Positions 2,343 through 54,194 are shown, numbered from the stretch's first letter. The stretch: 64,000 bases of DNA from Planctomycetota bacterium (GCA_964228555.1 CAXQZU010000040.1:47511-111510); one strand, 5' to 3'. The notes: generated by a model from the sequence alone, not told the origin. Program-made: numbers and translations.

Positions 2343-3251
2343 CTAGGCCGGCCCGGCAGGGGCGCCCCAGCAGCACACCTCTCGCTCCAGCGTGACGCCA
2401 TGCACGGCGCGCACGCGCGCCACCACCTCCGCGGCCAGCGCCTCGATGTCGGCGCTCGTGGCCGTGCCCGTGTTGATGAGGAAGTTGGCGTGCAGCACCG
2501 ACACCTGGGCACCGCCCACCTGCAACCCCTTGAGCCCCGCCGTGTCGATGAGCAGGCCCGCGGGACGCGCGCCCGTGGGGCCGTCGGGGTTCTTGAACAT
2601 GCAGCCGGCACTCGCGGCCGCCAGCGGCTGCGTGGACTGCTTCCACGTGCGCGCGCGCACCAGCAGGTCATGCTGTGCTGCGCGGTCCAGCGCGCGGTCG
2701 CGACGGAAGGTGGCGCCCGTGATCACGCAGCCCGCGAAGGGGCTGCGGCGGTAGCCGAAGTCCGCCGGGCCCACCCCGCGCCGGAAGGGCTCGCCCCGCG
2801 CGTCCACGCCCCGCACCTCCACCAGCGCCTCGCCCACCCAGCCGAAGCGACCGCCGGCGTTCATGAACACGACCCCGCCCACCTGGCCCGGGATGCCGGG
2901 GCAGCCGGGCAGCGCGGGGATCCCCAGCGCCACGCTCTGCCGCACGAGGTCGGGGAAGGGATGCCCGGCAGCGGCCTCCACGGCCTCCTCGCGCACCGCC
3001 ACGCCACGCAGGGCGCGCATCGAGAGCACGGCGCCCTCCACGCGGCCGTCGTGCACGAGCAGGTTGCAGCCCCCGCCAAGCACGCGCAGCGGCACGCCGC
3101 GCTCGCGGCAGGCACGCACCACCGCGGCCACCTCGTCCTCCGAGGCCGGCGTGAACAGGAAGTCCGGCGTGCCGCCCACGCCCAGCGAGGTCAGGCCGGC
3201 CAGCCGCGTGGCCGCTGCCCTGGCCTCATCGAAGCTGGGGCGCGAGGCCAC
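2343..3251 (-). CDS. murB: UDP-N-acetylenolpyruvoylglucosamine reductase
   Basis: LGGGCNLLV, GIPGQVGG..MNAG, FGYRRS, SAGCMFKNP, HANFLIN, LEREV motifs; GTG start at 3251 inferred. Confidence 0.95.
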   Translation of the reverse strand: MASRPSFDEARAAATRLAGLTSLGVGGTPDFLFTPASEDEVAAVVRACRERGVPLRVLGGGCNLLVHDGRVEGAVLSMRALRGVAVREEAVEAAAGHPFPDLVRQSVALGIPALPGCPGIPGQVGGVVFMNAGGRFGWVGEALVEVRGVDARGEPFRRGVGPADFGYRRSPFAGCVITGATFRRDRALDRAAQHDLLVRARTWKQSTQPLAAASAGCMFKNPDGPTGARPAGLLIDTAGLKGLQVGGAQVSVLHANFLINTGTATSADIEALAAEVVARVRAVHGVTLEREVCCWGAPAGPA

Positions 3252-4701
3252 CGTCGATCCCCTCGGCGATGCGCCGCGCCACGGCATCCACGTCTCCCGC
3301 GCCCATGGTCACCAGCACGTCGCCGGTGCGCACCTGCGCCAGCGCATGCGCGGCCAGGGCATCCAGGCCCGGCACCGTCGCGGCCTGCCCGCCCTCGCGG
3401 CGCACGGCAGCCGCGAGGTCCTCGGAGGTGACGCTGCGGCGCTCCTCCTCGCTGTCGCGCGCGAAGTAGATGGGCGGCAGCCACGCGGCGTCGGCCCCGG
3501 CCAGCGCACGCGCGAAGTCCTGCAGCAGGCAGCGCGTGCGGCTCGCCTGGTGGGGCTGGAACAGCACCACGATGCGCCGGCCGGCATGGCGGCTGCGCAG
3601 CGCCTGCAGCACGGCACGGATCTCCGCAGGGTGGTGGCCATAGTCGTCCAGCACGAGCACGCCACGGCGGTCGGCCACCTGCTCGAGGCGCCGGCCCACG
3701 CCCGCGAAGGCCGCCAGCCCGGCGCGCGCCTCCTCGAAGGACAGGCCCACGGCCTCCAGGGCCGCCAGCGCGGCCGTCGCGTTGAGCGCGTTGTGCATCC
3801 CCAGCAGCGGGATGCCCGCCTCGCCCCGGCGCTCGCCCGCGTGCCACACGTCGAAGGCGATGCCGGGCGCGTCGCGCCGGACCCGCACGTCGCGCACCGT
3901 CCACAGCGACTCGTCGCGCACGCCGTAGGTCTGCAGCCTGGCCTTGAGGCGTGGGTCGCGGCGGAACACGTCGGCGAAGTCCTCGTGCACCACCAACACC
4001 CCGTGGGCGGGCAGGCGCGCGGCGAAGACGCGGAAGGACTCCTCGATCTCGGCGAGGTCGCGGTAGTAGTCGAGGTGGTCCTCGTCGATGTTGGTGACGA
4101 TGGCCACCGTGGGCCGGTGCTGGTGGAACGAGCGGTCGAACTCGCAGGACTCGGCCACGAACGCCGGGCCGCGCCCCGCGTGGGCCCCGGTGCCGGTGGC
4201 CCCCACCACGCCCCCCACCACGAAGGAGGGATCGCGCCCGGCGTGCAGCAGCGCCGTGGCCACCAGCGACGAGGTCGTGGTCTTGCCATGGCAGCCGGCC
4301 ACGCAGATGGCCTGGTGCCCCTCCATCAGGGCTCCCAGCACCTGGGCGTAGGTGATCACCGGCACGCCGCGCGCGTGCGCCGCCGCGACCTGCGGGTGGG
4401 AGGGCGGCACGGCCGCCGAGCGCACGAGCAGGTCGAGGGCGGCAGGCAGGTCGCCGGGTGCATCACCCGGGGTGACCCGCACGCCCAGGGCGGCCAGCGC
4501 AGCACACCGCGCACCCGGCGCACGGTCGCTGCCGGCCACGGCGAGCCCGCGGGCCCGCAGCAGCCGCGCCGCACCGCTGGTGCCCGTGCCCTCCAGCCCC
4601 ACCAGGAACACGCTGCGCACCGCCGTCAGTGCGGGCACGAACGCACCCGGGACGCCAGCAGCCGAGGCCTGGGGCGTGGGGGCGGGCATCGTGGACCTCA
4701 T
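3226..4701 (-). CDS. murC: UDP-N-acetylmuramate--L-alanine ligase
   Basis: AGCHGKTTTSS, VAESCEFDRSF, TNIDEDHLDYY, DDYGHHPAEI, FQPH, TMGAGD. Confidence 0.95.
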   Translation of the reverse strand: MRSTMPAPTPQASAAGVPGAFVPALTAVRSVFLVGLEGTGTSGAARLLRARGLAVAGSDRAPGARCAALAALGVRVTPGDAPGDLPAALDLLVRSAAVPPSHPQVAAAHARGVPVITYAQVLGALMEGHQAICVAGCHGKTTTSSLVATALLHAGRDPSFVVGGVVGATGTGAHAGRGPAFVAESCEFDRSFHQHRPTVAIVTNIDEDHLDYYRDLAEIEESFRVFAARLPAHGVLVVHEDFADVFRRDPRLKARLQTYGVRDESLWTVRDVRVRRDAPGIAFDVWHAGERRGEAGIPLLGMHNALNATAALAALEAVGLSFEEARAGLAAFAGVGRRLEQVADRRGVLVLDDYGHHPAEIRAVLQALRSRHAGRRIVVLFQPHQASRTRCLLQDFARALAGADAAWLPPIYFARDSEEERRSVTSEDLAAAVRREGGQAATVPGLDALAAHALAQVRTGDVLVTMGAGDVDAVARRIAEGIDGGLAPQLR

Positions 4702-7097: not shown

Positions 7098-8453
7098 TCA
7101 CCTCAGCTTGAGCGTCGCCAGCGCAGCGACGACGAAGATGACGCTGACGATCCAGAAGCGGATCGTCACCTTGTTCTCGTGCAGGCCCAGGCGCTGGAAG
7201 TGGTGGTGCACCGGGGCGCACAGGAACCAGCGCTTGCCTTGGGGCGTGGGCTCGCCCCGGCGGGCGGCCGCGCGGCGCGTGAGCTTGAACCACGAGCGCT
7301 GCCAGATGACCGACAGCGCCTCGACGACGAAGATGCCGCCGGCCACCAGCAGCGTGAGCTCGTGGCGCAGGGCCACGGCCAGCACGCCCAGGAACCCGCC
7401 GATGGAGAGCGAGCCCGTGTCGCCCATGAACACCGAGGCCGGGTAGGCGTTGAACCACAGGAAGCCCAGCGAGCCCCCCACCAGCGCGGCGGCGAGGATG
7501 GCCAGCTCGGCTCCCTCCGGCACGTGGAACAGGTAGAGCTCGCGCGCCAGCACGGCGCTGCCCACCACGTAGCCCACCACCACGAAGGCGGTCGCCACCG
7601 TGGCCGTCACGCCGATGGCCAGGCCGTCGAGGCCATCGGTGAGGTTGACCGCATTGCTGGCGCCCACGATGACGAGGATGCCCAGCGGGATGAACAGCAG
7701 GCCCAGGTCCAGGCAGAAGCGCTTCGAGAAGGGCACCTGCAGGTCGGCACGGTGGTAGGTGCCCGCCGGCGCCGGCAGGCGCACCGTGCGGCCCTCGGTC
7801 AGCGGCTCGGGCCGGCCGGCCGCGTCCAGCCGGCCGTTCATCGACGCCAGCTCGCGGCCCCGGGCGGCATCACCCATCCAGCGCGCGGCCAGCGTGTCCC
7901 AGGTGTCGCCCCGCGCCGCCCGCGCCACCGGGTAGGGATCGGGCTGCCAGGAAGGCCCGCGCAGCCACGCGCGGCCCTCCTGCGCACACCCCACGGCGTA
8001 GAGCGCGGTGATGGCCGCGCCGCTGATCAGCAGCTGTCCCACCAGCTTCTGGCGCTCGCTCATGCCCTCGCCCTTGCGGTGCGTGAGCTTCTTCCAGTCG
8101 TCCATCGCGCCCAGCGCGCCGAACAGCAGGAAGGACACGATCACGATCCAGGTCTGCGGCAGGTCCAGCCGCATGAAGAGCAGGCCCGAGAGGGCCACGC
8201 CCACCAGCAGGATGACGCCGCCCATCGTGGGCACCGACTCCTTGGCCTTGCGCTCGGCGTCCACGTGCTCGCTGCCGGTGGGGCTGAAGCCCGCCAGCTT
8301 GCGCTTGCGCAAGGACTCGACGATGCCCGGGCCCACGATGGTGGCCACGAGGAAGGCCAGCACGGCCGCGAAGGCCGCCCGGAAGGTGGCGTACTCGATG
8401 ATGCGCAACGCGCTCACCGAGTCCTTGAACTGGACCAGCAGGTGGTAGATCAC
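7098..8453 (-). CDS. mraY: phospho-N-acetylmuramoyl-pentapeptide transferase with an inserted LysM-like domain
   Basis: PTMGG, DDWKK, NAVNLTDGLDGL, FMGDTGS, APVHHHF. GTG start at 8453 follows GAGGAGG. About 80 extra residues lie after TM4. Confidence 0.95.
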   Translation of the reverse strand: MIYHLLVQFKDSVSALRIIEYATFRAAFAAVLAFLVATIVGPGIVESLRKRKLAGFSPTGSEHVDAERKAKESVPTMGGVILLVGVALSGLLFMRLDLPQTWIVIVSFLLFGALGAMDDWKKLTHRKGEGMSERQKLVGQLLISGAAITALYAVGCAQEGRAWLRGPSWQPDPYPVARAARGDTWDTLAARWMGDAARGRELASMNGRLDAAGRPEPLTEGRTVRLPAPAGTYHRADLQVPFSKRFCLDLGLLFIPLGILVIVGASNAVNLTDGLDGLAIGVTATVATAFVVVGYVVGSAVLARELYLFHVPEGAELAILAAALVGGSLGFLWFNAYPASVFMGDTGSLSIGGFLGVLAVALRHELTLLVAGGIFVVEALSVIWQRSWFKLTRRAAARRGEPTPQGKRWFLCAPVHHHFQRLGLHENKVTIRFWIVSVIFVVAALATLKLR

Positions 8454-47384: not shown

Positions 47385-49835
47385 ATGCCCATCCCTCCCC
47401 GGCCGGCCCTGCCGCCCCTGCCCCCCGACAGGCTGCGCCGGCGCTGCCCACCCGAGAGCCTGCCCTTCGAGACCACGGCGACACTCGAGCCCCTGGCCCA
47501 TCCGCTGGGGCAGGAGCGCGCGCTGGAAGCCCTGCGCTTCGGCACGGGCATCCAGCGCGAGGGCTTCAACATGTTCGCGATGGGCCCGGCAGACACGGGG
47601 CGGCAGGCCATCGTGCGGGCCATGCTGGAGGAGCGGGCCGCCCGCGAGCCGGTGCCAGACGACATCTGCTACGTGCTCGACTTCCACCGGCCGCACCGGC
47701 CCAAGGCGCTGCGCCTGCCGGCGGGCCGCGCGCGCGTGCTGGAACGCGACATGGCCGGCCTTGTCGAGGACCTGCGCAACGCCATCCCGTCGGCGATGGA
47801 GGGCGAGGAGCAGCGGCGCCGCAAGGAGGCGCTGGCCGATGAGTTCAAGGAACGCCACGGCAAGCAGCTGGAGTCGTTGCGCGTCGCCGCCGAGGCGGCG
47901 GGTCTGGGCCTGCTGCGCACGCCGCTGGGCTACGGCTTCGCGCCGCTCGCGGACGGCGCAGTGCTGGCCCCCGACCAGTACCAGAAGCTCCCCGCAGAGG
48001 AGCGCCAGCGCCGCGAGGCCGAGAGCGAGCGCTTCGAGCGCCAGCTGCACGAGATCCTCGCGGAGGCGCCACGCATGGAGCGCGAGCTGCGCGCGCGCGT
48101 CAAGGAGCTGGTCCGGCAGGCGCTGCTACGCGCCGTGCAGCCGCTGGTCGAGGCCGTCGCACGACGCCATGCCGACCTGCCAGCCGTGGTGGAGCACCTG
48201 CAGGCCCTGCAGGAGGACGTGCTGGAGCACGCCGACGATTTCCTGCATGCCCCCGAGGGCCCGGGCCCGGCCCTGCTGGCCGCGCTGGAGCCCGGGCTGG
48301 ACGGCGCAACGGGGCCCCTGCGGCGCTACGGCGTCAACATCGTGGTGGACCACGCCGAGACCCGCGGCGCGCCCGTGGTGCAGGAAGACCACCCCACCTA
48401 CCAGAACCTGGTGGGCCGCGTGGAGTATGTGGCGCACCTTGGCGCGCTGACCACCGACTTCCGGCTCGTGAAGGGCGGCGCCCTGCACCGTGCCCACGGT
48501 GGCTACCTGCTGCTGGACGCGCGCGACCTCGTGCTGCAGCCCTATGCGTGGGAAGGCCTGCGCCGGGCCCTGCGATCCGGCGAGATCCGCATCGAGTCGC
48601 TGGGCCAGATGCTCAGCCTCGTGAGCACCACGACGCTGGAGCCCGAGCCGGTGCCTCTGGCGGTGAAGGTGGTGCTGCTGGGCGAGCGCTCGCTCTACTA
48701 CCTCATGGACGCCCTTGAGCCGGACTTCCACCGCCTGTTCAAGGTCGCCGCCGACTTCGAGGACGACCTGCCCTGGGACGAGGGCAGCGACCTCGCCTAC
48801 GCACGGCTGGTGGCCGGCCTGGTGCGGCGCGAGCGCCTGCACCCCCTGCGCCGCGAGGCTGTCGCGGCCGTGATCGAGCAGGCGGCGCGGCTGGGCGAGG
48901 ACGCGACCCGCCTCACCGCGCGCGTGGAGGCCATTGGCGACCTGCTGCGCGAGGCCGACCACGCCGCGCGCGCGCACGGGCGCGAGCTGGTGCAGGCCTG
49001 CGACGTGGAGCAGGCCATCGCGCAGCAGCAACGCAGGCAGGGACGGCTGCAGGAGCGGGTGCTGGACGAGATCCGCCGCGGCACGCTGCTCATCGACACC
49101 GAGGGCCGCAAGGTGGGCCAGGTCAACGGCCTCGTGCTGAGCCAGCTGGGCCACGCCAGCTTCGGGCGCCCGGGCCGCATCACGGCCCGCGTGCGCCTGG
49201 GCAAGGGGCAGGTGGTGGACATCGAGCGCGAGGTGGAGCTGGGCGGGCCGCTGCACAGCAAGGGCGTGCTGCTGCTGGCCGGCTTCCTCGGCGCGCGCTA
49301 TGCCACCGAGCAGGCCCTGTCGCTGGAGGCCACGCTGGCCTTCGAGCAGTCCTACGGACCCGTGGACGGCGACAGCGCCAGCACCGCCGAGCTCGTGGCG
49401 CTGCTGTCGGCGATCGCCGACGTCCCGCTGCGGCAGGACCTGGCGTTGACCGGCTCGGTGAGCCAGGCCGGCCAGGTGCAGGCCGTGGGCGGCGTCAACG
49501 AGAAGGTGGAAGGCTTCTTCGACGTGTGCCGCGCGCGCGGCCTGACGGGCACGCAGGGCGTGCTGCTGCCGGCCAGCAACGTGCGCCACCTGATGCTGCG
49601 TCCCGACCTGGTGGAGGCAGCCGCCGCAGGGCGGTTCCACGTGCACGCCATCGCCACGGTGGACGAGGCGCTCGAGCTGCTCACGGGCCTGCCTGCCGGC
49701 GAGCGCGACGCGCAAGGACGCTGGACCCCCGGCTCGGTCAACGCCCGCGTGGAGGAACGCCTGCTGGCCCTGGCAGCACGCCGCTCCCGGCTGGCGCGCG
49801 AGCAAGCCATGCCCCTGCCGGGCGCGTCGCCTTGA
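47385..49835 (+). CDS. Lon-like (S16) protease with degenerate AAA domain (YcbZ/LonB-like)
   Basis: GQERA, GALHRAHGGYL, GQVNGL, DIERE...HSKG, EQSYG.VDGDSAS (Ser), GGVNEK (Lys); degenerate Walker A MGPADTGR. Confidence 0.9.
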   Translation: MPIPPRPALPPLPPDRLRRRCPPESLPFETTATLEPLAHPLGQERALEALRFGTGIQREGFNMFAMGPADTGRQAIVRAMLEERAAREPVPDDICYVLDFHRPHRPKALRLPAGRARVLERDMAGLVEDLRNAIPSAMEGEEQRRRKEALADEFKERHGKQLESLRVAAEAAGLGLLRTPLGYGFAPLADGAVLAPDQYQKLPAEERQRREAESERFERQLHEILAEAPRMERELRARVKELVRQALLRAVQPLVEAVARRHADLPAVVEHLQALQEDVLEHADDFLHAPEGPGPALLAALEPGLDGATGPLRRYGVNIVVDHAETRGAPVVQEDHPTYQNLVGRVEYVAHLGALTTDFRLVKGGALHRAHGGYLLLDARDLVLQPYAWEGLRRALRSGEIRIESLGQMLSLVSTTTLEPEPVPLAVKVVLLGERSLYYLMDALEPDFHRLFKVAADFEDDLPWDEGSDLAYARLVAGLVRRERLHPLRREAVAAVIEQAARLGEDATRLTARVEAIGDLLREADHAARAHGRELVQACDVEQAIAQQQRRQGRLQERVLDEIRRGTLLIDTEGRKVGQVNGLVLSQLGHASFGRPGRITARVRLGKGQVVDIEREVELGGPLHSKGVLLLAGFLGARYATEQALSLEATLAFEQSYGPVDGDSASTAELVALLSAIADVPLRQDLALTGSVSQAGQVQAVGGVNEKVEGFFDVCRARGLTGTQGVLLPASNVRHLMLRPDLVEAAAAGRFHVHAIATVDEALELLTGLPAGERDAQGRWTPGSVNARVEERLLALAARRSRLAREQAMPLPGASP

Positions 49836-49907
49836 GGCCCCGGTGCGCCGGGCGCGGCGGGGCTGCGGAGCAGGCCCGCGCGGCGGGCCCGGTGGCACAA
49901 TCCTGCC

Positions 49908-50333
49908 ATGGCCCCCGCGTTCCGCATGCTGCCCCACACGGCCGATGCGGCCTTCGAGGTGACTGCGCCCTCGTGGGAGGCGCTGGTGCACGAGGCCACC
50001 GTGGCGCTGGGCGAGGTCCTGCGGCCCCATGCGGGCGAGCCCGTCTCGCGTGACCTGCCGCTGTCCGTGACGGGAGCCGACCGCGAGGACCTGCTGGTGG
50101 CCTGGCTCACGCAAGCCTTGCTGGCCTACGAGCAGCACGGCTCGGTGCCCCGCGGCGCCCGCCTCGTGCGCGTGGAGGCGGGCCGCCTCGAGGGCCACCT
50201 GCTGGCCCAGCCCACCGATCCACGGCGTGAGCCTCCCGACCGCGTGGTCAAGGCCGTCACCTACCACGACCTGCGCGTGGAGCCGGGCAGCGAGGCGAGC
50301 CCGTGGCGCGCGGTCGTGGTGCTGGACCTCTGA
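49908..50333 (+). CDS. archease
   Basis: HTAD, VKAVTYH, terminal VVLDL; directly upstream of rtcB. Confidence 0.92.
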   Translation: MAPAFRMLPHTADAAFEVTAPSWEALVHEATVALGEVLRPHAGEPVSRDLPLSVTGADREDLLVAWLTQALLAYEQHGSVPRGARLVRVEAGRLEGHLLAQPTDPRREPPDRVVKAVTYHDLRVEPGSEASPWRAVVVLDL

Positions 50334-51775
50334 TGCAGCCCGGCCCGGTGCACGTGGAACCCATCGACGGCCTGCGCTGGCGCGTGCGCCGCGAGGGCCC
50401 GATGCGCGTGGAGGGCGTGGTCTACGCCGACGCCGCCCTGCTGGCCCGCATGCACGACGAGAAGGCGCTGGAGCAGGTGCGCAACGTGGCCTGCCTGCCC
50501 GGCATCGTGGGCGCCTCGCTGGGGATGCCCGACCTCCACTGGGGCTACGGCTTCCCGATCGGCGGGGTGGCCGCCTTCGATCCGGCCACGGGCGTGATCA
50601 GCCCGGGCGGCGTGGGCTACGACATCAACTGCGGCGTGCGGCTGCTGGCCAGCGCCCAGCCCGCCGAGGCCGTGGCCGCGCGGCGGCAGGCGCTGGCCGA
50701 GGCGCTGGACCACGAGGTGCCCAGCGGCATGGGCTCGGCGCGCGAGGACCTCGTGCTGGACGAGGCCAGCCTGGACGCCGTGCTGCGCGAGGGCGCACGC
50801 TGGGCCGTGGCGCGCGGATGGGGCAACCCCGCCGACCTCGAGCACACGGAGGAGGGCGGCGTGCTGCCGGGCGCCGCGGTGCAGGAGGTGTCCGCCACCG
50901 CGCGTCGCCGCGGACGCGACCAGCTGGGCACGCTGGGCTCGGGCAACCACTTCCTCGAGGTGGACCGCGTGGCCGAGGTCTACGACGAGGCGGCTGCGCA
51001 GGCGATGGGCCTCGTGCAGGGCGCCACCGCCGTCCTCATCCATTGCGGCAGCCGCGGGCTCGGGCACCAGGTGTGCACGGACTTCCTGCCGGTGATGCGT
51101 GCCAGCGCGACGGCCCACGGCATCGACCTGCCCGACCCGCAGCTGGCCTGCGCACCGTTCCGCTCGCCGGAGGCGCAGCGCTACTACGGCGCGATGCGCG
51201 CTGCAGTGAACTTCGCCTTCGCCAACCGGCAGGTGATCGCCGACCGCGTGCGGCGCGCCTTCGCTCGCGTCGTGGGCCCGCAGGCGACGCTGCACCAGGT
51301 CTATGATGTCTGCCACAACATCGCCAAGCTCGAGCGCCACGTGGTGGACGGCGTGGAGCGCGAGCTGCTCGTGCACCGCAAGGGCGCCACGCGCGCCTTC
51401 CCGCCCGGCCACCCGCTCACGCCAGCCGCCTACCGCGCCTCGGGCCAGCCCGTGATCGTGCCCGGCGACATGGGCCGGTACTCCTTCGTGCTGGTGGGCC
51501 AGGACGGCGCGTGGCGCGAGACCTTCGGCTCGTGCTGCCACGGGGCCGGCCGGCTGCAGAGCCGCACGCGCGCCCAGGCTGACACGCGACAGCGCAACGT
51601 GCTGCAGGAGCTGGAGCAGCGCGGCATCGCCGTGCGTGCCGCCAGCCGTCGCACGGTGGACGAGGAACATCCGGGCGCCTACAAGGACGTGGCCGAGGTG
51701 GTCGGCGTGGTGGCCCGCGCCGGCCTGGCCCGCCTGGTGGCGCGGCTCGAGCCCTTCGTCGTGATCAAGGGCTAG
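50333..51775 (+). CDS. rtcB: RNA 2',3'-cyclic phosphate/5'-OH ligase RtcB (archaeal-type)
   Basis: MPDLHWGYGFPIGG, GYDINCG, GTLGSGNHFLE, HCGSRG, HRKGAT, PGDMG, HGAGR, AYKDV; TGATG overlap with archease. Confidence 0.96.
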   Translation: MQPGPVHVEPIDGLRWRVRREGPMRVEGVVYADAALLARMHDEKALEQVRNVACLPGIVGASLGMPDLHWGYGFPIGGVAAFDPATGVISPGGVGYDINCGVRLLASAQPAEAVAARRQALAEALDHEVPSGMGSAREDLVLDEASLDAVLREGARWAVARGWGNPADLEHTEEGGVLPGAAVQEVSATARRRGRDQLGTLGSGNHFLEVDRVAEVYDEAAAQAMGLVQGATAVLIHCGSRGLGHQVCTDFLPVMRASATAHGIDLPDPQLACAPFRSPEAQRYYGAMRAAVNFAFANRQVIADRVRRAFARVVGPQATLHQVYDVCHNIAKLERHVVDGVERELLVHRKGATRAFPPGHPLTPAAYRASGQPVIVPGDMGRYSFVLVGQDGAWRETFGSCCHGAGRLQSRTRAQADTRQRNVLQELEQRGIAVRAASRRTVDEEHPGAYKDVAEVVGVVARAGLARLVARLEPFVVIKG

Positions 51776-51831
51776 ACCCGCCGGGCCTGCGGGCGATAGC
51801 CCTTTGTAAGCATGCATGCCCGTGGAATCGA

Positions 51832-51872
51832 GCACCTTGCCACCCGTTGGCAAGGTGCCCGGGCAAGGTGCC
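51832..51872. promoter_or_regulatory. inverted plus direct repeat upstream of the DUF4258-WYL pair (candidate operator)
   Basis: GCACCTTGCCA-cccgt-TGGCAAGGTGC perfect 11-bp IR, plus a second GGCAAGGTGCC 13 bp later. Confidence 0.55.
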
Positions 51873-51927
51873 GCCGCAGGCGCGACGGTGAACCCCACCG
51901 CCCGCGATCCGCGCATGGACCTGTCGC

Positions 51928-52320
51928 ATGGCCTGCCTCGAGCCCACCTCCCATGCGCCCAGCCTGCTGGAGCAGCAACCGCTTGCCAGCGGCATCGTCC
52001 TGACCGCGCATGCCCGCGCGCGCTGCGTGGAGCGGGGCGTGGGACCGCGTGAGCTCGAAGGCCTGCTGCTCGAGCCCTTCCTCTGCGGGCCTTGCCGCCT
52101 CCCCCACCGCCAGTGGCTGGTCGGCCCCTCGCTCTCGCCGCAGGGGCAGCGCCGCTGGCTGGCCGCGGTCGTGGAGGCCCGGGCCGGCCGGCTGGTGGTC
52201 GTGACCGTGTTCCGCGTGCGCAGCACGCCCTCCGCCGGCCTGCCGGCACCGCACCTGCGCCTGCGTGCGCGCGAGCGGCTGCGCCAGCGCAGCCTTGCGC
52301 GTGCAGGGGGAGATGCCTAG
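51928..52320 (+). CDS. DUF4258-like putative RNase (BrnT/RelE-fold)
   Basis: IVLTAHARARCVERGV...LAAVVE....LVVVTVF pattern; its end overlaps the next gene's start. Confidence 0.6.
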   Translation: MACLEPTSHAPSLLEQQPLASGIVLTAHARARCVERGVGPRELEGLLLEPFLCGPCRLPHRQWLVGPSLSPQGQRRWLAAVVEARAGRLVVVTVFRVRSTPSAGLPAPHLRLRARERLRQRSLARAGGDA

Positions 52321-53515
52321 CGTGGGGCAGGGCAAGCAAGGGTCGCGGCCGCGCGAGGGCGCCACGCCGCAAGCCGCGGAGGGACCGGACCACCCGATGG
52401 CCGCAGCACGCCGTGACGCACGCTCGCGCACCGACGCCCGCGGCCGCGCCCGTGCGGCGGCCCGCGACCGCAAGCGCCCCGCCATCGAGATGGCGCACCT
52501 GCGCCAGCTCATCGCGCTCGACCGCCTGTTGCGCACCGAGCGCTGCACCCGACGCGAGCTGGCCAGGCGGCTCTCGGACCGCACGGGCGTGCCCACCAGC
52601 GAGCGCAGCATCAGCCGCTACGTGGAGGAGCTGGACGAGCACTTCGGGCTGCGCGCGGAGTTCGACCGGGCCTCGGGCGGCTACCGCTACCGCGACCCGC
52701 GCAAGCGGCTGCCCGTGGGCCTGTTCCTGTCCACGGATGCGTGGCTGATGGCCGAGTGGATGGCCTCGGTGGTGGGCACCGACCCGGTGGCCCCGCGCGC
52801 GCTGCGCGAGGCCCTCGCGCAGCTGCGCGGCGGCCGGGTGGAGGCGCCCGTCCCGCGCACCCTGCGCACCACGCCGCGCCCCGTGCGCATCAAGTCCGCC
52901 GGCAACGTGCTGGACGCGGTGGAACGCTGGTGGCTGGCCGTGCACGACCAGCGCCTCGTCACCTTCGAGTACCCCGTGCGCGGCGACCGCGGCCGCACCG
53001 CAGCCCGCACCGTGGAGCCGCACGGCATCGCGTTCGTGGAGGGATGGTTCCAGCTGGACGGCTGGGACCGGCAGGCGGGAGACTGGCGCACCTTCCTGCC
53101 GACGCGCATGCGCTCCTTCGCCGAGAGCGGCGAGCGCTTCGTGCGGCGCGAATGGGATCCCGACGTGGTCTACGCGGGCGCGTTCCGCCGCAAGCGCGGC
53201 CCCGAGCAGCACCGCGTGCGCGTGCTGCTGGGCGCGCGCGTCGCCTTCATGGCAGAGGACATCGAGCAGCATCCCAGCCAGCGCATCGTCGAGCGCCGTG
53301 AGGACGGCAGCGTGGTCGTGGAGTGGCAGCTCTCCTACCTCTACGAGGTGCTCAACTGGGTGCTGTCGCTGGGTGCCGAGGCCGAGGCCCTGGAGCCGCC
53401 GCAGCTCGTCGAGCTCGTGCGCAGCAGCATCGGGGCCATGGCCCGCCGCTATGGGCTGGGGGCGCCGCACGCGGACGGCCACGACGGGCGCGCGCCGTCG
53501 CCCGGCCCACGCTGA
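52313..53515 (+). CDS. wHTH-WYL-WCX transcriptional regulator
   Basis: HTH (ELARRL...SERSISRYVEEL..GGYRY), WYL (VTFEY..RTVEPHGI....WFQL.GW......RTF...RM), WCX (HPSQ...WVLSLG.EAEALEP); start uncertain (52313 or 52397). Confidence 0.9.
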   Translation: MPSVGQGKQGSRPREGATPQAAEGPDHPMAAARRDARSRTDARGRARAAARDRKRPAIEMAHLRQLIALDRLLRTERCTRRELARRLSDRTGVPTSERSISRYVEELDEHFGLRAEFDRASGGYRYRDPRKRLPVGLFLSTDAWLMAEWMASVVGTDPVAPRALREALAQLRGGRVEAPVPRTLRTTPRPVRIKSAGNVLDAVERWWLAVHDQRLVTFEYPVRGDRGRTAARTVEPHGIAFVEGWFQLDGWDRQAGDWRTFLPTRMRSFAESGERFVRREWDPDVVYAGAFRRKRGPEQHRVRVLLGARVAFMAEDIEQHPSQRIVERREDGSVVVEWQLSYLYEVLNWVLSLGAEAEALEPPQLVELVRSSIGAMARRYGLGAPHADGHDGRAPSPGPR

Positions 53516-53548
53516 CGGCGCGGGCGCGCCGCTCGCGGGCGAGGGGGA

Positions 53549-53638
53549 TGGCGGAGAGGCAGGGATTCGAACCCTGGGTAGCCTTGCGACTACACCGGTT
53601 TTCGAAACCGGCCCGTTCGACCGCTCCGGCACCTCTCC
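53549..53638 (-). tRNA. tRNA-Ser(CGA)
   Basis: GGAGAGG acceptor, anticodon arm CCGGT-TTCGAAA-ACCGG, long variable arm, GGTTCGAATCC, encoded CCA. Confidence 0.96.
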
Positions 53639-53655
53639 GCGGCGGCGAAGCAGGG

Positions 53656-53684
53656 ACGGTAGGCACGCCCCACCGGCAGGTCAA
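53656..53684 (-). promoter_or_regulatory. sigma70-type promoter of tRNA-Ser(CGA)
   Basis: TTGACC-N17-TACCGT on the minus strand. Confidence 0.6.
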
Positions 53685-54187
53685 GCCGGGGTGGGCGCGT
53701 CGGGTCCGGGGTCCGCGCGTCGCGCCCGGAAGAAGGCGCGCAGCAGCCCGGCGCTCTCGTCGGCCAGCACGCCCATGCGGACCGGCAGCCGGTGGTTGAG
53801 GCGCGGGTCGCGCGGCACGTCGTAGAGGCTGCCCACGGCGCCAGCCTTCGGGTCGGGCGCCCCGAACACCAGCGCGCCCAGCCGCGCGTTCACGAGCGCG
53901 CCGGCGCACATCGTGCACGGCTCGAGCGTGACGTAGAGCGTGGCGTCCTCGAGGTGCCAGTCGCCCCGCGCACGCGCCGCCTCGCGCAGCACGAGCACCT
54001 CGGCATGCGCGGTCGGGTCGCGATCGCGCTCGCGCCGGTTGCCCGCGCGCGCCACCACGGCGCCCCCCACCACGAGCACGGCCCCGATGGGCACGTCGCC
54101 GGCCTCGGCGGCGGCGCGCGCCTCGGCCAGCGCCAGCGCCATCCACCGCGCGTCCTGCTCCGGGGCCCCCGGCGGCACCGCGGCCAT
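53681..54187 (-). CDS. tadA: tRNA adenosine(34) deaminase
   Basis: DVPIGAV, DPTAHAE, LYVTLEPCTMCAGA, DPKAGA, FF..RR. Confidence 0.95.
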   Translation of the reverse strand: MAAVPPGAPEQDARWMALALAEARAAAEAGDVPIGAVLVVGGAVVARAGNRRERDRDPTAHAEVLVLREAARARGDWHLEDATLYVTLEPCTMCAGALVNARLGALVFGAPDPKAGAVGSLYDVPRDPRLNHRLPVRMGVLADESAGLLRAFFRARRADPGPDAPTPA

Positions 54188-54194
54188 GCACGCC

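Follow-up and report, generated by a model that had tools for sequence, protein, structure and literature searches.

Between the archease-rtcB operon and the gene for tRNA-Ser(CGA) of a planctomycete genome lie a 130-aa open reading frame (ORF), named ORF130, and a gene encoding a transcription factor with WYL and WCX domains. We consider the chances about even that these two genes form a lineage-specific, self-regulated cassette that carries its own palindrome and occupies a variable slot at this site. The locus belongs to a 64,000-nt stretch of DNA from a Planctomycetota bacterium (GCA_964228555.1, CAXQZU010000040.1:47511-111510), hereafter the window, in which positions are counted from the first letter. 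This reading is built on the gene content of the locus, the modeled fold of ORF130, the co-inheritance of the two genes, a conserved palindrome and a missing antitoxin gene. The genome that holds the window (G000) is a 2.75-Mb metagenome-assembled genome of 74% GC that is 93.7% complete; G002 is a sister species and G001 a third species, both of the same genus. On the plus strand, a LonC-like protease gene, archease, rtcB, ORF130 and the WYL+WCX gene follow one another, and the minus strand beyond them carries tRNA-Ser(CGA), a tadA-like deaminase gene and a Fur-family gene. A preliminary description of this DNA, made from the sequence alone, had rightly placed a WYL+WCX gene (Pfam) 3′ of the 130-aa ORF, and tRNA-Ser(CGA) and then tadA (ARAGORN, Pfam) on the opposite strand.

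A small gene related to DUF4258

ORF130 (51928-52320, plus strand) starts 152 bp after the end of rtcB at 51775, the distance reported previously, and it also contains the pattern reported there, reading LTAHARARCVERG...VVVTVF. Its GC content at codon positions 1, 2 and 3 (0.82/0.58/0.885, versus 0.80/0.51/0.94 for rtcB) follows the pattern of real genes in G000, its stop context GCCTAGCGT is common to G000 and G002, and at least five lineages preserve its frame, length and stop. Judged by its coding GC, its same-length homologues with a conserved stop and the population variants described below, ORF130 is a real gene.

The Pfam family DUF4258 (PF14076) matches ORF130 over profile positions 1-71 of 71 with 15.1 bits (E 0.03), below the cut-off of 25. 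Scores of its relatives are 20.5 bits for P0002 (88% identical), 29.8 for P0004 and 28.6 for a paralog on another contig of G000 (C68). Since ORF130 itself scores under the cut-off while P0004 and the C68 paralog exceed it, membership in DUF4258 is assigned by transitivity only. Few homologues of ORF130 exist in the databases searched: a word-indexed search returned ORF130 itself and one 88% identical protein. Searching 1.84 billion representatives with phmmer gave four proteins at E ≤ 1e-3, of which, besides ORF130, two were usable: P0003 (48% identity) and P0004 (51% identity over the core). The nearest protein-atlas clusters are DUF4258 (score 0.88), NCBIfam and PADLOC gave no family for ORF130, a PDB sequence-profile search with the DUF4258 alignment gave no meaningful match, and a P0004-based search for related loci found nothing in public genome or metagenome contigs.

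An AlphaFold2 model built from five sequences has a core with predicted local distance difference test (pLDDT) values of 82-91 and the β-α-α-β4 topology of DUF4258, and a low-confidence C-terminal helix (residues 108-129). In a wide PDB structure search the best match was BrnT of the Brucella abortus BrnTA system (3u97; Z 8.0, root-mean-square deviation 2.6, 74 of 77 residues), and RelE1 and MqsR each scored Z 7.6; a Z near 8 is middling for this tool, and the weight lies in the uniformity of the list, in which RelE/ParE/BrnT-type toxins take up every one of the first 23 rows. With the same model no Foldseek match reached E ≤ 1e-3, and its list was filled by BrnT (template modeling score 0.70 on the target, E 0.04), HigB2, ParE, RelE and YoeB. 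According to these models, ORF130 has a RelE/BrnT-type (BECR) fold, at a sequence identity of 12-16% to the BrnT, RelE and MqsR toxins.

We aligned the ORF130 clade with 18 canonical planctomycete DUF4258 members. The HA..R...ERG motif at the start and the V.T..P motif at the end are common to both, and H28 (the first His), the Thr and the final Pro are retained in the clade. Missing from it are the Y-P-x-D loop as well as the second His and Tyr; these last two, both replaced here, belong to the three polar positions that DUF4258 conserves most strongly. The clade further has an Arg-rich C-terminal extension, absent from canonical members, whose predicted helix is kept between P0001 and P0003. 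This partial loss of conserved polar residues makes RNase activity of ORF130 uncertain. The earlier designation as a DUF4258-like RNase is thus upheld for the predicted fold and for the relatives that pass the cut-off, and weakened by the protein's own Pfam score and its replaced polar residues.

The paralog (C68:26753-26986; locus L009, 7718-8008, minus strand) is a 96-aa protein in which the second His is likewise missing. No zinc-ribbon gene partners it; a small lipoprotein-like ORF (MKTQRTGRLG...LAGC, with signal peptide and lipobox) begins at its stop.

A regulator resembling PafBC and DriD

The WYL gene (52490-53515, plus strand; Pfam WYL 39 bits, WCX 53.2 bits) had been described as overlapping ORF130. 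That overlap came from taking the longest ORF, which opens at GTG 52265, and it disappears on comparison with G002: the DNA identity of the two species climbs to nearly 100% at CCATCGAG-ATG, and the non-conserved spacer before it (52321-52489) shows gaps of 33, 1, 3 and 4 nt. From this onset of conservation we placed the start at ATG 52490, 169 nt past the ORF130 stop. A zinc-ribbon or antitoxin-like domain in the N-terminal extension encoded by 52265-52489 was considered and rejected, as the extension has no CxxC and is not conserved.

PADLOC offered generic WYL models only for this regulator. A profile of 12 WYL homologues searched against PDB matched PafBC (6sj9, 5.3e-36), the DriD-type structure 8tp8 (3.2e-25) and PafB/PafC chains, the matches to PafB/PafC and 8tp8 spanning profile positions 20-301, and it matched CapW/BrxR more distantly (1e-7 to 1e-10). 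Pfam called no helix-turn-helix (HTH) in the window protein; weak HTH_33/HTH_32 matches were present in the G002 orthologue. On the strength of these profile matches the protein is assigned to the PafBC/DriD class, with WYL and WCX behind an N-terminal DNA-binding domain, a build shared with PafBC (6sj9, 7p5x), DriD-type (8tp8), BrxR and CapW proteins.

A conserved palindrome precedes ORF130

An operator-like element of inverted and direct repeats occupies 51832-51872. It consists of the palindrome GCACCTTGCCA-N5-TGGCAAGGTGC (core 51835-51855), which ends 73 nt 5′ of the ORF130 ATG, and of a third half-site, GGCAAGGTGCC, 13 nt further on (51862-51872). Words reading GGCAAGGTG occur eight times in the window against 0.85 expected, and three of them cluster at the palindrome. 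The 8-N5-8 core, CCTTGCCA-N5-TGGCAAGG, is identical in G002, where the surrounding spacer is otherwise unalignable. There it lies 3′ of a zinc-ribbon gene and 113 nt 5′ of the ATG of the ORF130 homologue, and so stays with that homologue despite the zinc-ribbon gene that separates it from rtcB. The zinc-ribbon gene (L008, 6798-7703) encodes a 301-aa protein with Pfam DZR and Zn_ribbon_TFIIB matches, and it is followed at G002 7740-7785 by a stretch of ~45 nt that is unusually AT-rich for this GC-rich genome.

Elsewhere in G000, a copy with one mismatch, CCTTGCCA-N5-TGGCAGGG, is found at C30:156981-157001 (L131, 4482-4502), in a divergent intergenic region of lower GC whose two flanking genes have no Pfam match; a minus-strand gene starting MPEIRVSV... 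lies ~70 nt away. This copy may mark another member of the same regulon. A two-mismatch copy sits at the end of a gltX-like gene, and a reversed control pattern gave 0 matches in G000. Upstream of archease or the LonC-like gene there is no copy of the palindrome, even with three mismatches allowed.

ORF130 and the WYL gene occur together

Among 61 relatives, a homologue of ORF130 was detected in G002 (41% identity), with weak matches in G013 and G025; G000 itself has the C68 paralog. The order in G002 is LonC, archease, rtcB, the 301-aa double-zinc-ribbon gene, the ORF130 homologue, WYL (79% identity) and tadA. Two of the 40 genomes of the order, G000 and G002, carry a close WYL orthologue (E ≤ 1e-20), and these same two have the adjacent ORF130 orthologue. 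On this distribution, ORF130 and the WYL gene are inherited together. Our WYL-based scan for related loci found G002 alone in public genome contigs and nothing in metagenome contigs. Other WYL homologues of the phylum are at most 34% identical, and a DUF4258-like ORF accompanies one of 29 such loci (L077), in convergent orientation. The 11 kb examined around the homologue in G013, a more distant member of the clade, contain no WYL or rtcB gene, and neither is near the C68 paralog.

The DNA between rtcB and tRNA-Ser(CGA) varies among relatives. In G001, an integrase-like ORF comes after purD, fur, tadA and tRNA-Ser and extends as far as the contig start, with no WYL gene or ORF130; this ORF, on the 3′ side of tRNA-Ser(CGA) (L128, G001:C424, 1-460), shows an integrase-like N-terminus (...GWYIRIRQGEGEIQRYAGGDKATATEFLKRL...), a family label that we presume from its motif. 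The tRNA-Ser(CGA) gene may be an integration hot spot. As no direct repeat of its 3′ end was seen in the window, we claim neither att sites nor island limits. In five other genera of the family, unrelated genes come after the archease-rtcB orthologues, which are 70-77% identical (SNF2/HNH, MgtE, class-V aminotransferase, phosphopantetheinyl transferase, DUF1579), and the 5-17 kb around them contain neither WYL nor ORF130. In family f33, too, the 3′ flank of rtcB holds differing small genes in differing species.

Antitoxin genes at canonical DUF4258 loci

PF14076 is present in 97 of 401 genomes of the phylum at E ≤ 1e-3. We surveyed the best 30 loci with 1.5-kb flanks, scanning 150 of 155 ORFs (five short ones were dropped). 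At 13 of these loci the DUF4258 gene is followed, often with a 4-nt overlap, by an ORF of 70-134 aa with a weak MqsA_antitoxin/YokU zinc-ribbon match, and at three more by a small ORF without family assignment in the same place. In the window this downstream antitoxin position is held by the WYL gene. Neither the 152-nt nor the 169-nt spacer that flanks ORF130 contains a conserved small ORF, both being poorly conserved with indels relative to G002, which bears out the earlier remark that no antitoxin-like gene lies beside the 130-aa ORF. None of the 30 canonical loci has WYL or rtcB within 1.5 kb.

Gerdes 2025 (PMC11980606) counts DUF4258 among RelE/ParE BECR-fold toxins, with ~6,000 Pfam entries, 17 DUF4258-MqsA fusions and a function given as 'unknown' and 'undescribed in the literature', and mentions neither WYL nor RtcB. 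In a 2026 preprint (10.64898/2026.08.28.747851), DUF4258 is moved to a Colicin-like/Ntox49 branch and BECR RNases are stated to leave a 2′,3′-cyclic phosphate. Among the titles and abstracts listed in our literature searches, none describes a DUF4258-WYL pair or a WYL-controlled planctomycete rtcB.

Two loci with canonical DUF4258 genes deserve mention. At L063 (G144:C49, 369-1761), a gene for an RlaP-family 'RNA repair pathway' nucleotidyltransferase lies directly 5′ of DUF4258, one more isolated case of DUF4258 beside an RNA-repair gene. In G044 (C103:105074-111962), a WYL homologue (105074-105982, minus strand) and DUF4258 (111747-111962, plus strand) stand ~6 kb apart in what may be a defence island.

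rtcB as a neighbor

The neighbors of rtcB were surveyed at the best 30 PF01139 loci of the phylum with our own hidden Markov models within 1.5 kb. DUF4258 adjoins rtcB at one of the 30 loci and WYL at none, and no WYL gene lies in the 5-17 kb surrounding the archease-rtcB pair of seven further genomes belonging to the order. The single case is G386, from a distant family and with 43% GC, in which usp, archease, rtcB, DUF4258, an MqsA-like gene and pcm follow one another (L107, G386:C54, 313-4277). Its canonical DUF4258 gene (2921-3241) begins 110 nt 3′ of rtcB, and the MqsA-like zinc-ribbon gene spans 3235-3480. Relatives of G386 have usp-archease-rtcB-pcm without the DUF4258 pair, and in two congeners the slot is taken by other small ORFs that are of toxin-antitoxin type or rich in Cys (L106, 598-840 and 1079-1297; L117, 1065-1472); judged by motif, they resemble DUF2283 and an AF2212-like antitoxin. 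By a rough estimate, chance adjacency among ~216 DUF4258 matches is 0.1, so that one case has P ~0.1; this independent rtcB-DUF4258 adjacency is suggestive and no more. The linkage to rtcB that had been expected in relatives is accordingly found in part: G002 has it, with the zinc-ribbon gene in between, and G386 has rtcB-DUF4258, whereas G013, the C68 paralog and the 30 DUF4258 loci do not. The linkage in G002 reflects ancestry shared with G000.

RtcR, the CARF-containing sigma-54 activator, was sought in G000 with PF06956, and no match was found at E ≤ 0.01, whereas the E. coli control was positive. The earlier inference that WYL takes the place of RtcR agrees to this extent with our search of this 93.7% complete genome.

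Proposed mechanism and alternatives

If ORF130 and the WYL gene form a self-regulated cassette, the regulator would bind the conserved palindrome 5′ of ORF130 as an HTH-WYL-WCX dimer of the PafBC/DriD class, its WYL domain would sense a nucleic-acid ligand, and the protein would thereby set transcription of ORF130 and of its own gene. ORF130 would be a BECR-fold, RNA-directed effector, putatively a toxic RNase, no longer accompanied by the MqsA-like zinc-ribbon antitoxin found in ordinary DUF4258 modules; transcriptional control, an attenuated active site or the two together would keep it harmless. Its place beside rtcB would be the landing site of the cassette, not a demonstrated repair partnership. 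Several points weigh against this reading. The cassette occurs in only two related species, which makes its co-inheritance a single evolutionary observation, and with 169 nt between ORF130 and the WYL gene co-transcription is an assumption. Since G000 carries four WYL genes, another regulator could bind the palindrome; the palindrome region also folds as an 11-bp RNA hairpin, so that it could act at the RNA level. PafBC and DriD are activators, which bears on the direction of control. In the ORF130 clade the second His has become Ala (RPLHVV to RWLAAV) and the Tyr of ITxY has become Phe, while Arg stands in for the first His in P0003 and in the G002 homologue; the protein may be no RNase at all. 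ORF130 is also fast-evolving, with 41% amino acid identity, a nonsynonymous divergence (dN) of 0.64 and a ratio of nonsynonymous to synonymous divergence (dN/dS) of 0.75 between G000 and G002, values that relaxed constraint would give equally. By the same Nei-Gojobori (NG86) estimate, dN/dS is 0.25 for LonC and rtcB, 0.36 for WYL and 0.41 for archease.

Such divergence would be expected if ORF130 were a relic, decaying or neutral, left by a DUF4258 toxin gene after loss of its antitoxin, with the WYL gene as an unrelated chance neighbor. The loss of conserved residues, a variable N-terminus with indels, the ease with which open frames persist at 74% GC, and a density of single-nucleotide polymorphisms (SNPs) between that of genes and that of spacers all agree with decay. 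Population variants, taken from contigs of four runs from four studies, agree less well. In ORF130 four of five SNPs are synonymous, all at third positions, the fifth is nonsynonymous (L118R), and there is no indel or stop. The corresponding counts of synonymous and nonsynonymous variants are five and one in WYL, one and none in archease, and one and four in rtcB (two from partial contigs); the two spacers have three and four SNPs, with four in spacer 52321-52489 (169 nt). These counts are small and noisy, as the 1:4 of rtcB itself illustrates, which again weighs against the cassette. They give weak support to an ORF130 that is currently constrained yet diverges rapidly from one species to the other, a frequent trait of conflict-related genes. 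The frame, length and stop kept in at least five lineages, the in-frame third-position GC of 0.885, the C-terminal helix kept between P0001 and P0003, and the conserved palindrome that precedes the gene likewise speak against a relic, which we regard as improbable.

The two other explanations give rtcB a functional part. The preliminary description had proposed that ORF130 is a WYL-controlled, metal-independent RNase whose 2′,3′-cyclic-phosphate/5′-OH cuts are resealed by RtcB-archease, forming a reversible translation-arrest or defence switch. The end chemistry of RtcB is established and fits this proposal, as do the predicted BECR fold and the cyclic-phosphate ends ascribed to BECR RNases in the preprint cited above. 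RtcB-archease lies directly 5′ on the same strand with no predicted terminator before ORF130, the arrangement is kept in G002, no RtcR was found, and G386 offers an independent case in a distant family whose congeners lack the pair. We nevertheless judge the proposal unlikely, given that rtcB neighbors none of the 30 DUF4258 loci, that the converse adjacency at one of 30 rtcB loci compares with a chance expectation of ~0.1, that no rtcB lies near the clade member in G013 or near the C68 paralog, and that conserved polar residues are partly lost. In addition, a zinc-ribbon gene and a promoter-like AT-rich stretch intervene between rtcB and the cassette in G002, and the palindrome precedes ORF130, not archease-rtcB. 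This last point also bears on the possibility that the WYL protein is an RNA-damage regulator of archease-rtcB, standing in for RtcR, and ORF130 a swappable accessory gene. Such a role would suit a protein of the PafBC/DriD class encoded near rtcB in both G000 and G002, in a genome in which no RtcR was found. It is rendered doubtful by the lack of a palindrome copy 5′ of archease or LonC, by the position of the WYL gene 3′ of rtcB and beyond ORF130, and by the lack of WYL genes both at the 30 rtcB loci of the phylum and around archease-rtcB in the seven other genomes of the order. A more ambitious version would have the WYL sensor replace antitoxin and RtcR together: a damage or infection signal would release an antitoxin-less BECR RNase, RtcB-archease would religate the breaks in a reversible switch, and the G386 adjacency and the toxin-antitoxin-type small genes of its relatives would be versions of one design. 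We consider this unlikely as well.

Relation to known systems

The cassette, as we read it, resembles and departs from several known systems. DUF4258 is a large toxin-like family of type II toxin-antitoxin modules whose usual partner is a small zinc-ribbon antitoxin, and BrnT, RelE and MqsR, the best structural matches of the ORF130 model, are RNase toxins. ORF130 has no adjacent small antitoxin gene that could be its cognate and no MqsA-like, YokU-like or DUF2283-type partner. Palindromic sites beside a regulated gene are also known for BrxR, CapW and DriD, as the candidate site is here. However, brxR and capW lie upstream of their targets whereas the window WYL gene lies downstream of its putative target, its match to BrxR and CapW is distant, and its partner is one small BECR protein instead of a multi-gene defence system. 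In E. coli and Salmonella, the Rtc system comprises rtcBA under RtcR; the window has RtcB and archease, translationally coupled, but no rtcA was seen in the locus and no RtcR was found in the genome.

If the cassette reading is true, an antitoxin-less clade associated with a WYL regulator would represent either a toxin checked by transcription alone or a fold turned non-toxic. If the damage is indeed undone by RtcB, the locus would offer a natural and genetically compact example of programmed RNA cleavage and repair. To date this idea has drawn support only from systems whose genes are unlinked, for example MazF or VapC together with RtcB in enterobacteria. The finding is confined to two species.

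Flanking genes and host

Archease (49908-50333, plus strand; PF01951, 88.5 bits, full length) and rtcB (50333-51775, plus strand; PF01139, 555.9 bits) form one operon. The archease stop TGA (50331-50333) shares its A with the rtcB ATG at 50333 (TGATG, 50331-50335), a 1-base overlap that confirms the translational coupling noted previously. We took ATG 50333 as the rtcB start, and the N-terminus read from it agrees with the starts of orthologues; the G002 orthologue is 89% identical. The pair is kept in seven further genomes of the order. The LonC-like AAA+/Lon protease gene directly 5′ of archease (47385-49835, plus strand; Pfam AAA_32 176.8 bits, LonB_AAA-LID, LonC_helical and Lon_C) also adjoins archease in G002 (87% amino acid identity); no such neighbor of archease-rtcB was found in the other genera that we examined. 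Across the phylum, 313 of 401 genomes carry PF01139, and two kinds of RtcB occur in the family. The archease-linked long form is found in G000, G002, G004, G010, G012, G015 and G021. The second kind (Pfam match E ~1e-125 to 1e-133, with an open frame of ~415-445 aa where listed) is found in most other genomes and is the only one in G001, of the same genus as G000.

On the far side of the cassette, tRNA-Ser(CGA) (53549-53638, minus strand; ARAGORN, Rfam tRNA 55.7 bits) points its 3′ end toward the WYL gene, followed by the tadA-like tRNA adenosine deaminase gene (53681-54190, minus strand, start approximate; Pfam MafB19-deam 129.7 bits, dCMP_cyt_deam_1 94.6 bits). An Rfam scan of 49700-53800 matched the tRNA alone, and a promoter and terminator scan of the same interval gave no site, a result that is little informative for a planctomycete at 74% GC. 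The segment 49900-53540 is nearly intact (88-98% of sampled words) in 20 public DNA runs. These stem from 11 metagenome studies covering freshwater, estuary, reservoir, drinking-water and marine samples; the host organism is widespread in such waters.

Within 49885-49910, directly 5′ of the archease ATG, lies a TGGCAC-N5-TGC element that abuts the start codon and leaves no leader. It resembles a sigma-54 -24/-12 element, with a spacing one base short of the consensus. Upstream of it, after the LonC stop, is a GC hairpin (GGCCCGC GCG GCGGGCC).

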